A stretch of DNA of 64,000 nucleotides. Source: Escherichia coli 042. GTDB lineage: Bacteria > Pseudomonadota > Gammaproteobacteria > Enterobacterales > Enterobacteriaceae. Within the stretch, counting starts at the first letter, position 1. Each line of letters starts with the position of its first letter. Shown here piece by piece: positions 19,881 to 26,242 of the stretch. A program made the translations under genes and the position numbers. The DNA is taken from assembly GCF_000027125.1 (NCBI RefSeq), contig NC_017626.1; one strand, given 5' to 3'. Under the pieces are notes generated by a model that saw only the letters and a list, made by a program, of their open reading frames with translations, was not told the origin of the DNA and ran no database searches.

Positions 19881-20795
19881 TTATTCATAGATAAAAGTGA
19901 CACCAATGACTGACTGGACGGTTCCGGCTGAAACCTTGTTTCCTGTTTGTCCATAGGTTGCGCTTAAACCCAGAGGTACTTTGCTTTTATTTACTGTCCC
20001 CAGGGAGACATTTTCTCCCGTAGCCAGTATTTTTCCATTACGCATCAGAGAGACACCCACTCCCGATGCTTTTGTCGCATCAGGTGCTGTGTTAGCAAAC
20101 ACTTGTCGGGCACTGTCAGTGGTGGCACCCGAAAGATAAAATGAGAGCTTTTGTTCGCTTGAGCAATATACGCCAAGGGGTATTTCTGCGCTTCCAGGAA
20201 AGTCCGGGAGATTCACGGTGACATTACGACTATCAACAGTGCAGCCGCCTGTTGGCATAACAACACTGTTATTTGAAATAATATTCCACGTAAAATTACG
20301 CGGATTTCCGCTTCCTAACGTGGCAATTTTATACATATGAATACGGGCAATGACTTCCCCCGCTTTTATGACAACTCCACCGGCTGCACCAACTGGGGTA
20401 ATATAGAGTTTTAACGGTAATGGCATCGGTGTCTTATCACCAATATCCAATACGTTGGTATTTGTCGTCAACGGGAAGGGGTAGGTTACATTATTCCAGT
20501 ACAGCGATCCTTTATATGACTGTAGGGAGCCTGCGAAAGCTGAGCCTTGTACCAGGTTTATATGATCGGTGTCGTACCAGCCGCCGTAATCATTCCAGCA
20601 ACTTATATGCTGAGACAAGTCTACAACCAGATTCTGGCCCGGTTGTATTACAGGGTCGAGATTAACATAAACAGAGGTTGTACCTGCTCCAATACTTGAC
20701 CCGCCATCGACATTACAACTGAAGGCAAAAACTTTGCCTGCCATTAATAGAAGATAAATACCGAACAGGACCTTTATACTGAATGTTTTACCCAT
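19881..20795 (-). CDS. ydeQ: F9/Fml-type fimbrial tip adhesin (FimH-like two-domain protein)
   Basis: 304-aa secreted ORF, last gene of the chaperone-usher operon; its C-terminal half resembles a pilin domain. Confidence 0.8.
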
Positions 20796-20854
20796 GATAT
20801 ATCCTAAGGTTAAGAAATTGATTTAAAAAGGAGGCTAAGAAAATCGAATCGACG

Positions 20855-21358
20855 TTATTGCCAGGTGTAGATCACATTGATTAGCGCCTCGATCGTTCCC
20901 TGGCTTGCATTTCCATTCACCGTGATAGCTCTTGCCTTAAGTGGAAACTGTGCATTACGAGTGATCTCATCAACAATAACCGTTTTGCTATCGCCATTTT
21001 TTAACGTCGCATCCTGGTCATCCCTCAGCTCTATCTGAATATTTTCGGCACTACCTTCATTTTTGTAATAACCCGTATTGTCAGTTGAACCTGTCACGAT
21101 TGCCGTCACTGCACTTGTTTCAACCGGACAATCGGTTAATGACAAAGTAATATTGTGCCAGCCAGATGCAGAGCCAGGTTGTTGCAGATTGCGTGTATAA
21201 AGATCCCCGAGATTAACGTTAGCTTCTTTGGTTTGAATAGTGCAGGGTTTAGCGACTACCCGACCATTAACAGTGATAGTGACATCGGCGGCCTGGAGAG
21301 TTGCTGTGAATAACGCGCAAAACGTAGCTAACAGGAACCTCTTGTGAAGTCTTTTCAT
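20855..21358 (-). CDS. ydeR: Fimbrial minor subunit (FimG-like)
   Basis: 167 aa, signal peptide, conserved Cys pair, C-terminal …VIYTWQ donor-strand-acceptor pilin fold. Confidence 0.8.
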   Translation of the reverse strand: MKRLHKRFLLATFCALFTATLQAADVTITVNGRVVAKPCTIQTKEANVNLGDLYTRNLQQPGSASGWHNITLSLTDCPVETSAVTAIVTGSTDNTGYYKNEGSAENIQIELRDDQDATLKNGDSKTVIVDEITRNAQFPLKARAITVNGNASQGTIEALINVIYTWQ

Positions 21359-21370
21359 ATCTGACTCTGA

Positions 21371-21901
21371 TTATTGAAATTCAAGGGTAAAGGTTGCCGA
21401 AGCCCTCACCAGTCCCGGATTGACGGACTTCTGAGTTGACTTCAGACGAGCGGAGTAAGGCAAAATATTGTTCTGTTCTGGTACCAGTGGGATCCACTGC
21501 ATCCCGGCATGAAGGTCATTCAATTTCACCGGACGCATATTTCCGTCCAGTATTTCTATACCCAAACCGGAGGCCGTATTGCTTCCTTCATCCAGTTTCA
21601 ACAGAGTATTATTTTCTGCATCCTCAATACCGTTAAATGCAACTCGAACCCCCGTTGTCCCTTTGCTGCATTCACTTAACGTAATCTGAAAAGGGACGGC
21701 TGGACTTGTGCTACCGGTCGTTGGAAATTGTCTGGCACTGTTTTTTTGGAGATCTACGGTAAAATTAAGCGAATCCGATGAGACTGTGCAGCCATAATCG
21801 AGGACGCGCCCGCTAATTTTAATAACGCTATCTGCGGATAAAGCAGAATAGGTGGTTAACCCCAGACATAAACCGAGGAAAATAATGTTATTGTATTTCA
21901 T
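21371..21901 (-). CDS. ydeS: Fimbrial minor subunit (FimF-like)
   Basis: 176 aa, signal peptide, C-terminal …ATFTLEFQ pilin motif. Confidence 0.8.
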   Translation of the reverse strand: MKYNNIIFLGLCLGLTTYSALSADSVIKISGRVLDYGCTVSSDSLNFTVDLQKNSARQFPTTGSTSPAVPFQITLSECSKGTTGVRVAFNGIEDAENNTLLKLDEGSNTASGLGIEILDGNMRPVKLNDLHAGMQWIPLVPEQNNILPYSARLKSTQKSVNPGLVRASATFTLEFQ

Positions 21902-24566: not shown

Positions 24567-24607
24567 TATTTATTCCGATTGAGTTTATTATTAATTAGGT
24601 CACTGGC

Positions 24608-25327
24608 TTACTGCATGGTTGCCTTAATACGCGGAGTTAATGCACCGTAATCATTGATCGTCTGAAAACTGATATCCCCGGTTGCAGCATGCGGGATATC
24701 CACCGATACTTCACCTTTTGGCGGCACCATGGTGTTTGGGAGATTGCTATTTCCTGCTTTCATATTTGTTACGGTAATGAAGTAGGGCGTTGGATTAATA
24801 AGAGTGAGTTTGCTACCGCTGCGACGAAACCGAAGCATTGCTGGCGCTTCTTCAGGTGCCATTGCCAGGTTAGTGGGGCGATAAAACATTTTTATGCGGC
24901 TAATAATTGCCAGCTGTAATGTATTCTCATTCTTCTGGTCTTTTTCCATAGCAGGAATAGCTTTAACATTAACCCAGAACAGGCTTTCACGGTCGCCTGG
25001 TAACTGATGATTAGTGGCGTTGATTATCCGCAGCGTATTCTCTTTTTTACCTTGCATGGAAAAAAGCGGTGGAGTAATGACAAACTGGGTGTCTTTTTGG
25101 TCACCTGCATTTTCTATCCATGACTGAATGAGATAGACACTGGCAGGATCATTATTCGTGACAGGCAATAAAACCTGTTTCTGGTTTGCCGGATAAATTA
25201 CCCGCGTCGCACCCAGTGCGACAGCTGCGTTGGCAACGGTGCTATGGCAAGCAAAGAGCAATAAAAGTAACACTGTCGCCATAAAGGAAATAGAGTAGGG
25301 GGTACGCGTAGTTTGCATCTGATGCAT
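24608..25327 (-). CDS. Periplasmic fimbrial chaperone (PapD/FimC family)
   Basis: 239-aa ORF with signal peptide and the chaperone N-terminal motif …GATRVIYP…; sits between pilin and usher. Confidence 0.85.
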   Translation of the reverse strand: MHQMQTTRTPYSISFMATVLLLLLFACHSTVANAAVALGATRVIYPANQKQVLLPVTNNDPASVYLIQSWIENAGDQKDTQFVITPPLFSMQGKKENTLRIINATNHQLPGDRESLFWVNVKAIPAMEKDQKNENTLQLAIISRIKMFYRPTNLAMAPEEAPAMLRFRRSGSKLTLINPTPYFITVTNMKAGNSNLPNTMVPPKGEVSVDIPHAATGDISFQTINDYGALTPRIKATMQ

Positions 25328-25678
25328 TCTCCATGTGTTAAGAGGATAAGCGGGAAAACCGTTACATCAGACAATCGATAAATGTTGCTAATACATTGGC
25401 GAGTCGCCGGGTTTCCAGACTTAATGCGTTTGTAATAAATGTTGGTTCTCTTTTAATAGGAAAACCTTGCTACAAAGTAAATATTTTAAATAACAGTAAG
25501 TTTAACTACTGTTGTTTATTGATCGTTTAGATATTATGTGATTTTTCATAGTGCTCCAAATACAAACCATTCCTCATTAATAATGAGATTCACATTGGCG
25601 AATTGCTCGGGTGTGCGTAGCCATGCCACACACACCCTGTTTCAATTTCAGATGACGTATAGCCACCTTAAGATTGAA

Positions 25679-26242
25679 TTATAGATATTGAACTTTGAAG
25701 GTCGCATCAGCGTTTGCAGTACCAGCTACTGACTGCCCGAGAGCAATATAACGAGCCTGGAATGGCAGTATATTCGTGCCATCAATCAAGTCGGTTTTAG
25801 CGCTAAAAGTGCCACCATCAAGTATTAATACCTCCCCCGTACGGTCCAAAATTTGAATACCAACATTTTGGGCAGAGCCTGCCGCTGAACTCTGCAGCGC
25901 TAAGGTATCGTCATTACTGGTGACAGTAGTACCCAGGAATGCAACAGCTGCATTACTGGAAACATTGGTATCACAATCATTCAGCTTGATATTGAAGCCA
26001 ACGGCGGAGCTGAGGTCACCCGCTTTAGCCAGACGAGAAGAGCGAACCTGACCCAGCTCAACCGTTTGGTTCATTGATTCTGAATCAATCGCACAAGCGG
26101 CATTTACCACTTCACCTTTAAAATGAATAACACCGCCATTAACAGTGGTCGTTACTGATTCATCACCCTCGGCTGCGCTTACCGCAGCAGACGACATCGC
26201 CAACACAGAAACGACAATCATACCGACATGTTTGAGTTTCAT
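25679..26242 (-). CDS. Major fimbrial subunit (FimA-like pilin)
   Basis: Start taken at [23 protein letters not shown] (signal peptide); conserved Cys pair and C-terminal …ATFKVQYL; first gene of the operon. Confidence 0.85.

Follow-up and report, generated by a model that had tools for sequence, protein, structure and literature searches.

The locus at positions 19881-26242 of the window, by which we mean the whole 64,000-nt stretch of DNA analyzed here, is very probably the F9 (Fml/Yde) chaperone-usher pilus operon of the E. coli chromosome in complete form, and it seems capable of making a pilus, whose working is proposed here from published work on CFT073, UTI89 and O157. It was assigned to the F9/Fml type because the lectin domain of its adhesin is identical to that of the crystallized FmlH, the mapped f9 promoter is present, and the operon occupies the ydeP-to-hipA position. 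This operon is already known: its organization, prevalence, disruption in K-12, repression by H-NS and expression at low temperature were described in PMC3966885 (Wurpel et al. 2014), in which strain 042 is listed as F9-intact.

Layout and coding integrity of the operon

The operon, its control region and its neighbors are composed as follows.

17263-19542: ydeP, downstream of the operon (ORF map)
19881-20795, minus strand: tip adhesin FmlH/YdeQ, 304 aa (Pfam FimH_man-bind, 6e-78; lectin identity to FmlH)
20855-21358, minus strand: minor subunit ydeR, FimG-like adaptor, 167 aa (Fimbrial, 8e-10)
21371-21901, minus strand: minor subunit ydeS, FimF-like adaptor, 176 aa (Fimbrial, 3e-22)
21915-24566, minus strand: full-length outer-membrane usher, 883 aa (PapC_N, 4e-46; Usher, 4e-200; PapC_C, 4e-22)
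24608-25318, minus strand: periplasmic PapD/FimC-type chaperone, 236 aa (PapD_N, 8e-40; PapD_C, 5e-12)
25328-25678, minus strand: 351-nt non-coding spacer between the pilin and chaperone genes, holding a 13-bp GC-rich hairpin
25679-26242, minus strand: major pilin (F9 major subunit, FmlA-type), 187 aa, with its ATG at 26242 (Fimbrial, 4e-31)
26243-26492, minus strand: AT-rich 5' untranslated leader, 251 nt including the start G, 30% G+C, candidate H-NS target region
26493-26529, minus strand: f9 promoter, with -35 TAGTCG (26529-26524), an 18-nt spacer, -10 CATAAT (26505-26500) and start G at 26493 (match to the mapped promoter)
26676-28414: yneL remnant and hipA, upstream of the operon (ORF map)

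The ORF map of the window showed six head-to-tail ORFs on the minus strand without internal stops or frameshifts, and the coding part ends exactly at 19881 and 26242, while the promoter and 5' UTR stretch the unit to about 26529. Together with the Pfam domains, the map gave the order major subunit, chaperone, usher, minor subunit, minor subunit, adhesin, which is the six-gene F9 organization stated in PMC3966885. The same order was found in KE55, O157:H7 DEC4E, AST215 and BEC1, and the ORF lengths agree with the RefSeq-annotated intact copies in these four strains. The original prediction had described an intact, contiguous six-gene F9/Fml-type operon with an 883-aa usher that could make a functional pilus. 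The intact layout is borne out by the uninterrupted ORFs and their Pfam matches, and frameshifts that might have been overlooked were looked for, with none found in any of the six. The F9/Fml label likewise held, and the operon looks able to build a working pilus, with intact ORFs, catalytic and anchor residues present, and pN/pS ratios mostly of 0.03-0.18.

The individual proteins were then compared with solved structures and with other strains. In the usher, the Pfam Usher match spans profile positions 1-549 of 549, the PapC_N and PapC_C matches are also complete, and the protein aligned end to end with FimD structures (1165 bits). The best solved relatives of the chaperone are FimC (1e-88) and SfaE, and alignment to FimC showed that its subunit-anchoring residues are kept, namely the Arg in 'GATRVIYP' (Arg8) and the Lys in 'VNVKAIP' (Lys112). 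The usher thus has N-terminal, barrel plus plug and C-terminal domains and the chaperone has two Ig-like domains, as belong to a chaperone-usher pathway with a FimD-like usher and a short-loop chaperone of the FimC type. The RefSeq-style chaperone start lies at 25318, and an alternative in-frame ATG upstream at 25327 would give 239 aa (24608-25327). Compared with other strains, the major pilin differs by 0-4 aa and the ydeR-type subunit by 1-3 aa, and the ydeS-type subunit has the same protein sequence as in KE55 and O157. At four usher residues (E107, T136, N424 and D456) the window stands apart from all three intact copies compared (KE55, O157 and AST215); the exact usher protein, public as CBG34459.1, occurs on 87 recorded contigs, so that the differences reflect polymorphism of the lineage and not errors in sequencing.

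The operon sits where F9 is expected, with ydeP downstream and a variable region and hipBA upstream (PMC3966885), and the ydeP/hipA synteny is the same in K-12, KE55, O157, AST215 and BEC1. Strains vary in the structure of the upstream flank; in the window this flank is without the ~8-kb oxidoreductase island of the overall nearest genome and carries a hipBA deletion. As a separate observation, the immediate neighbors hipBA, the autotransporter and yneL are degraded in the window.

Promoter, pilin-chaperone spacer and proposed working of the pilus

In CFT073 the f9 promoter was mapped by 5'-RACE to the same hexamers, with a start G 251 nt before the pilin ATG (PMC3966885). In the window, TAGTCG-N18-CATAAT is found a single time, where chance would give 0.03 occurrences, and the G at 26493 precedes the A of the pilin ATG by exactly 251 nt. 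The -10 element is invariant across all eight other strains compared and the start site is conserved, while two promoter-spacer positions in the window differ from the other strains compared. A general promoter consensus scan gave 15 matches versus 17.6 in shuffles and missed the mapped f9 promoter; a terminator consensus scan gave 9 versus 6.7, and this consensus scanning was judged to carry no information. H-NS binds the 251-bp f9 promoter fragment in CFT073, and F9 is repressed by H-NS, silent at 37 °C in laboratory culture and expressed at low temperature (~20 °C) (PMC3966885). The leader may therefore be an H-NS target region in the window strain as well. A fimS-like invertible switch was also sought and rejected, as the inverted repeats around the promoter are short, imperfect, AT-rich and no better than chance, and no recombinase ORF is adjacent.

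The spacer between the pilin and chaperone genes contains a hairpin at 25609-25637, 42 nt past the pilin stop codon, with a 13-bp GC-rich stem and without a U-tract. Folded in a 101-nt context, it gave an energy of -36.4 kcal/mol (z = -4.2). Six strains share an invariant stem, and the most divergent strain, AST85, has a single change that is not compensated, so that covariation gives the hairpin no support. The hairpin could tentatively be viewed as a functional RNA element, either a partial terminator or a 3'-end stabilizer, that sets the level of major pilin high relative to chaperone and usher, but we consider this rather doubtful. A similar role in pilin ratios has been proposed for the papA and fimA transcripts, and no description of such a role for F9 was found in the F9 literature examined. 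An Rfam scan of 19000-28600 gave no match for the spacer hairpin; its one hit, a sub-threshold OxyS match within the adhesin gene (E = 0.24) that scored 23 bits where the gathering score is 75, was treated as chance. The ORF map shows no subunit of the FimI type that could act as terminator or anchor. A decayed fimI-like gene in the spacer was considered and dismissed, because stops fill all frames and tblastn with four pilin-fold proteins gave nothing meaningful.

Based on CFT073, UTI89 and O157, transcription would run from the G at 26493 through the AT-rich leader, with H-NS silencing expected at 37 °C and lifted in hns mutants or at temperatures of about 20-28 °C. Sec would export the subunits, the FimC-like chaperone would fold and cap them through donor-strand complementation, and the FimD-like usher would polymerize them through donor-strand exchange. 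In the expected order, FmlH would stand at the tip, followed by the 167-aa and 176-aa adaptors and then the rod of the 187-aa major pilin. The lectin domain would bind terminal galactose/GalNAc glycans, on inflamed bladder and kidney Gal-beta1-3-GalNAc (TF antigen) and Gal-beta1-3-GlcNAc; binding of plant xyloglucan, as in the O157 F9 case, may be added to these. H-NS repression, expression in the cold and the assembly of pili that bind Gal-beta1-3-GlcNAc or TF glycans have been demonstrated in CFT073 and UTI89 (PMC3966885, PMC5866590).

Adhesin and relation to known fimbriae

The adhesin consists of a signal peptide (residues 1-24), a lectin domain (25-184) and a pilin domain (about 185-304). 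Its FimH_man-bind match covers 1-145 of 145, the C-terminal domain gave a weak Fimbrial match under Pfam's cut-off (E = 0.0002), and the full-length protein aligned with FimH at 1e-81. Residues 25-184 are 100% identical to the UTI89 FmlH lectin domain (residues 1-160; crystals 6AOW and 5LNE), so the question of the structure of this domain, raised in the original prediction, is answered by the solved crystal 6AOW. Because of this identity, all the FmlH ligand contacts reported in PMC5866590 (F1, Y46, D53, K132, N140 and R142, counted in the mature sequence) are present. Selection on the domain seems to be tight, as only one amino-acid change was found in its 160 aa at pS 0.32.

The closest known system is therefore F9/Fml itself (CFT073 c1931-c1936; UTI89 fml, in which FmlH is also annotated FmlD; O157:H7 F9), which shares with the window operon the position by ydeP, the lectin domain of UTI89 FmlH, and the hexamers and start-site distance of CFT073. 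The differences are allelic only, with at most 98.5% DNA identity to the complete RefSeq genomes searched and two promoter-spacer substitutions.

Could the locus instead be a second type 1 operon, encoding mannose-binding Fim fimbriae? PGAP/RefSeq names its homologues fimA, fimF, fimG and 'type 1 fimbrial major subunit', the adhesin has the strong FimH_man-bind match listed above, and, FmlH apart, the closest paralogues with solved structures are FimC, FimD and FimH. The window operon does belong to the same chaperone-usher sub-family as fimAICDFGH, as shown by the FimD and FimC alignments, and its adhesin has the two-domain FimH architecture and retains F1 and the D53/D54-equivalent. However, the sugar pocket is remodeled. 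We take the FimH mannose pocket to be N46, D47, D54, Q133, N135, D140 and F142, with Y137 as the gate residue; in the alignment to FimH, Q133, N135, D140 and F142 are replaced by K132, A134, N140 and R142, and the gate Y137 by L136, changes that would suit Gal/GalNAc specificity. The lectin domain is that of FmlH, which binds Gal/GalNAc and not mannose (PMC5866590). Moreover, the operon lacks fimI, the fimB/fimE recombinases and a fimS-like invertible element, it lies at a chromosomal locus other than fim, and F9 is regulated by H-NS and temperature (PMC3966885). We consider a second type 1 operon extremely unlikely.

Distribution, selection and what the locus means

K-12 lacks the counterpart of window positions 23142-26420 through a clean 3,279-bp internal deletion, which takes codons 1-475 of the usher gene, the chaperone and major-pilin genes, and 178 nt at the proximal end of the leader. 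As a result, K-12 ydeT is only the last ~408 usher codons (the 3' 1,227 nt), and this fragment and ydeS, ydeR and ydeQ remain at the same locus with 98-99% identity, with the promoter kept. The K-12 ydeQRST remnant cannot assemble a pilus on its own because the N-terminal part of the usher, the chaperone and the major pilin are deleted. The alignment agreed with the earlier claim that K-12 keeps only a ydeT fragment and ydeSRQ, and the K-12 locus is not equally intact. The claim of an accessory difference stood only in part: K-12 does differ, but not through an accessory gain, as the intact operon is the majority state. Of 5426 complete E. coli genomes, 3592 contain at least 80% of the 7.2-kb query, counted as DNA coverage and not as strictly intact ORFs. 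In roughly a third of the complete genomes, 20% or more of the region is missing; insertions of IS2, IS1203, IS1 and IS4 occur, and a large internal deletion is found in S88. F9 is disrupted in every phylogroup A strain (PMC3966885). The intact form represents the ancestral majority state, and the 3.28-kb internal deletion allele of K-12/phylogroup A is derived (PMC3966885).

The best match among the 5,426 complete genomes reached 98.5% DNA identity and intact copies in other strains 97-98.5%; the nearest relatives per gene form a mosaic, and the differences are mostly synonymous. The idea of a divergent operon was nevertheless rejected: each of the six proteins can be found unchanged in public records, and one public contig is 100% identical over 14.65 kb, so the 98.5% gap is a product of which genomes are in the collection. 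The pN/pS ratio of 0.03-0.18 applied to the six genes in most comparisons, one pair had no amino-acid difference, and the neighboring ydeP gave a comparable 0.05. These ratios indicate that all six genes are under strong purifying selection.

That the operon is a recently acquired accessory island marking the window strain off from K-12 is hardly credible. Its G+C content of 42-46%, compared with 50-54% in ydeP and the autotransporter, suggests a foreign origin at some point, and the variable upstream flank would fit an island, but some part of the locus was found at one chromosomal place in 5361 of the 5426 genomes, including a lineage about 10% diverged, and the clean deletion in K-12 is flanked by what remains of the operon, the promoter on one side and the 3' usher fragment with the three distal genes on the other. 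An ORF-intact but cryptic locus, permanently silenced, decaying and heading to the pseudogene state of K-12, S88 and others, has more in its favor, given the frequent disruption, which includes all phylogroup A strains, the H-NS silencing at 37 °C and the degraded neighboring genes. Yet the genes are as constrained as ydeP, even against a lineage at pS about 0.3, they contain no stops or frameshifts, and conservation extends to the -10 element and start site of the promoter. The same operon also has published phenotypes, including chronic UTI fitness, calf colonization and biofilm at 20 °C (PMC5866590, PMC3966885). We thus regard a cryptic locus as improbable, and a complete F9/Fml pilus operon remains our preferred reading.

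F9 distribution, regulation, adhesin structure and even adhesin inhibitors have already been published, as have the comparison with K-12, UPEC and O157 and the work on H-NS and low-temperature expression that the original prediction proposed. The value of the present result is one of annotation, namely that the window strain appears to have a complete, selectively maintained F9/Fml pilus operon. At the F9 locus it is K-12 that is deviant, and the RefSeq labels 'type 1 fimbrial FimA/FimF/FimG' on F9 genes are misleading. The FmlH lectin domain, identical in the window strain, is a drug and vaccine target studied in UPEC, so that the ligands, antibodies and galactoside inhibitors already published for FmlH should be applicable to the window strain as well.

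The F9 operon, its promoter and its adhesin

The ORF map of the window showed six uninterrupted consecutive ORFs on the minus strand at 19881-26242, as follows:

25679-26242, minus strand: major pilin, 187 aa from the ATG at 26242 (Pfam Fimbrial, 4e-31)
24608-25327, minus strand: chaperone, 239 aa, or 236 aa from the RefSeq start at 25318 (Pfam PapD_N and PapD_C)
21915-24566, minus strand: usher, 883 aa (Pfam PapC_N, Usher and PapC_C)
21371-21901, minus strand: minor subunit, 176 aa (Pfam Fimbrial)
20855-21358, minus strand: minor subunit, 167 aa (Pfam Fimbrial)
19881-20795, minus strand: adhesin, 304 aa (Pfam FimH_man-bind, positions 1-145 of 145, 6e-78)

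The mechanical ORF of the pilin reached back to a TTG at 26290. The usher matched the Pfam Usher profile over positions 1-549 of 549 (4e-200), and the adhesin had a weak pilin-domain match C-terminal to FimH_man-bind. The ORF map and Pfam thus confirmed the predicted six open, contiguous genes in both coordinates and intactness. Plus-strand ORFs in the region (81-126 aa) were nested within the six genes and were discarded as unsupported.

Residues 25-184 of the adhesin showed 100% identity to the lectin domain of FmlH as solved by crystallography (6AOW with ten related entries, 5LNE and 5LNG), a protein expressed from UPEC UTI89 as residues 1-160 (PMC5866590). Because of this identity, all six residues that contact the FmlH ligand (F1, Y46, D53, K132, N140 and R142; PMC5866590) are present, and their numbering was confirmed by counting along the mature adhesin. 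The UTI89 F9 operon appears as "disrupted" in Table 2 of Wurpel et al. (PMC3966885), although the structural work was done on FmlH from UTI89 (PMC5866590); the latter paper also describes in-vivo UTI experiments.

The proteins also resembled those of the type 1 pilus: the usher aligned with FimD along the full length (1165 bits), the chaperone aligned with FimC at 1e-88 and retained both subunit-anchoring basic residues, and the adhesin matched full-length FimH at 1e-81. The mannose pocket of FimH includes Q133, N135, D140 and F142, whereas the adhesin has K, A, N and R at these positions, respectively, and a second type 1 pilus was therefore rejected. Judged by sequence, the operon is a predicted galactose-specific paralogue of the type 1 pilus. 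PGAP labels the F9 major subunit "fimA: type 1 fimbrial major subunit FimA" at homologous public loci (L002, L003, L005, L006, L012 and L013), and the minor subunits fimF and fimG in some genomes; such labels are misleading, since F9 is an operon in its own right whose adhesin is specific for Gal/GalNAc.

In CFT073, the mapped f9 transcript begins with a G that lies 251 nt before the pilin start codon, from a promoter with -35 TAGTCG, an 18-bp spacer and -10 CATAAT (Wurpel et al. 2014, PMC3966885). The window (64 kb) had a single TAGTCG-N18-CATAAT, on the minus strand at 26529-26500 (0.03 expected by chance), and base 26493 is a G at exactly the CFT073 distance, 251 nt, from the first base of the pilin ATG (26242). 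The -10 hexamer was unchanged in all eight other strains compared, and the promoter spacer carried two lineage-specific substitutions in the window. The lectin domain and this promoter together bore out the F9/Fml-type assignment. The leader has a G+C content of 30%, and being AT-rich it is compatible with published H-NS binding. A fimS-like switch was looked for near the operon and was not found, and the ORF map showed no adjoining recombinase gene.

Distribution and maintenance in E. coli

When 19500-26700 was searched by megablast in 5,426 complete E. coli genomes, some part of the F9 locus was found in 5,361, and at least 80% of the query lay in one place in 3,592 (66%). The remaining genomes had K-12-type deletions, other deletions (e.g. 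S88) or IS insertions. This count is consistent with the published intact frequency of 60-61%, in which every phylogroup A strain was disrupted (PMC3966885). Given this majority presence, the intact operon is the ancestral majority state and no accessory gain.

The MG1655 annotation runs ydeQ, ydeR, ydeS, ydeT pseudogene, yneL-type helix-turn-helix remnant and hipA, with ydeT (1,227 nt) marked "missing N-terminus". Alignment showed that K-12 has deleted the equivalent of 23142-26420 (3,279 bp): pilin and chaperone are gone, as are codons 1-475 of the usher and the proximal leader, and the f9 promoter is retained. The K-12 locus is thus not equally intact, and the state given for it in the original prediction, a usher fragment (ydeT) plus ydeSRQ, agreed with annotation and alignment. 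The operon had also been called an accessory difference; the difference from K-12 held, and the accessory status did not. Save for this nuance, the overall reading of the locus as an F9/Fml pilus operon is supported.

The best complete-genome match to the operon was 98.5% identical, and the nearest relative differed by gene: the adhesin was closest to AST215, and the chaperone, spacer and pilin to KE55. All six exact proteins are already in public collections (usher CBG34459.1, 167-aa subunit CBG34457.1, adhesin CBG34456.1 among them); CBG accessions are those of the enteroaggregative strain 042 genome. Contig DBIBGH010000001.1 (GCA_049816985.1) was 100% identical to the window across 14,652 bp, and several further contigs were 99.8-99.98% identical over operon and flanks. 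Strain 042 (phylogroup D) is listed with intact F9 (Table 2, PMC3966885); the operon is already known in detail, this strain included.

Nei-Gojobori counts against O157, AHB10 (97% identical) and AST85 (a lineage about 10% diverged) gave pN/pS of 0.03-0.18 in most comparisons of the six genes. One O157 comparison had zero amino-acid differences, and one AST85 comparison was gapped and left unscored. The neighbour gene ydeP gave 0.05. No compared copy had an internal stop, and the 160-residue lectin domain showed a single substitution, K120N, at pS 0.32. The low pN/pS, the lack of stops and the near-invariant lectin domain argue, at the level of sequence, that the operon is maintained rather than silently decaying in lineages keeping F9.

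Flanking regions

Upstream of the operon lies a yneL-type AraC-family helix-turn-helix fragment (26676-26930, minus strand, 84 aa; HTH_18, 5e-21), a conserved remnant, since all strains examined have it annotated as a pseudogene truncated at the N-terminus. The region from this fragment to hipA is structurally variable, with an oxidoreductase island in KE55, AST215 and BEC1 (the nearest overall relative) that is absent from the window. The near-identical contigs L008, L010 and L011 keep hipBA intact, and relative to them 987 bp are missing from the window at 28479/28480: hipB as a whole, the initial 55 nt of hipA (remnant 27212-28414) and the final 161 codons, for the beta-barrel end, of the adjoining autotransporter; no microhomology was obvious at this junction. 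A sister contig (L009) and O157 have other deletions at this position, suggesting that the hipBA toxin-antitoxin pair has been lost repeatedly.

The ECSE_1600-family (YneO-type) autotransporter (28477-33417, minus strand) is a pseudogene in the window, with an in-frame TAG at codon 322 (about 32452-32454) giving ORFs of 321 and 1316 aa besides the 3' truncation; its homologue is intact (1806 aa) in L008, L010 and BEC1. Downstream, 36812-42297 and surroundings hold the lsr autoinducer-2 uptake operon, uxaB, sad and other core genes. Of the 5,426 complete genomes, only 9 matched this 24-kb flank at 99% identity or more, so the window's lineage is poorly represented among complete RefSeq assemblies.

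Proposed working of the pilus and the spacer hairpin

The genes are intact, the promoter is conserved and the adhesin is identical to one characterised in both structure and function; the mechanism below is inferred from earlier publications on this operon. H-NS would repress the operon at 37 °C, with expression around 20-28 °C. Chaperone and usher would build the pilus through donor-strand exchange: FmlH at the tip, then two adaptors, then the major-pilin rod. The adhesin would bind terminal Gal-beta1-3-GalNAc and Gal-beta1-3-GlcNAc glycans, as reported on inflamed bladder and kidney (PMC5866590, PMC3966885). O157 F9 is reported to bind plant xyloglucan as well (PMC7766294).

Between pilin and chaperone lie 351 non-coding nt (25328-25678), in which neither an Rfam match nor a pilin-gene remnant was found. 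A GC-rich hairpin of 13 bp, closed by a 3-nt loop and lacking a U-tract (25609-25637, minus strand), stands 42 nt 3' of the pilin stop, and in its 101-nt context the fold energy was -36.4 kcal/mol (z = -4.2). Its stem was invariant in six strains despite variable flanks; no compensatory change was seen in it, and the most divergent strain had one non-compensated change. The hairpin could be an mRNA 3'-end stabiliser or an attenuator. This candidate structure may modulate the pilin-to-usher transcript ratio, and this modest role is the sole reading here that is possibly not already described.
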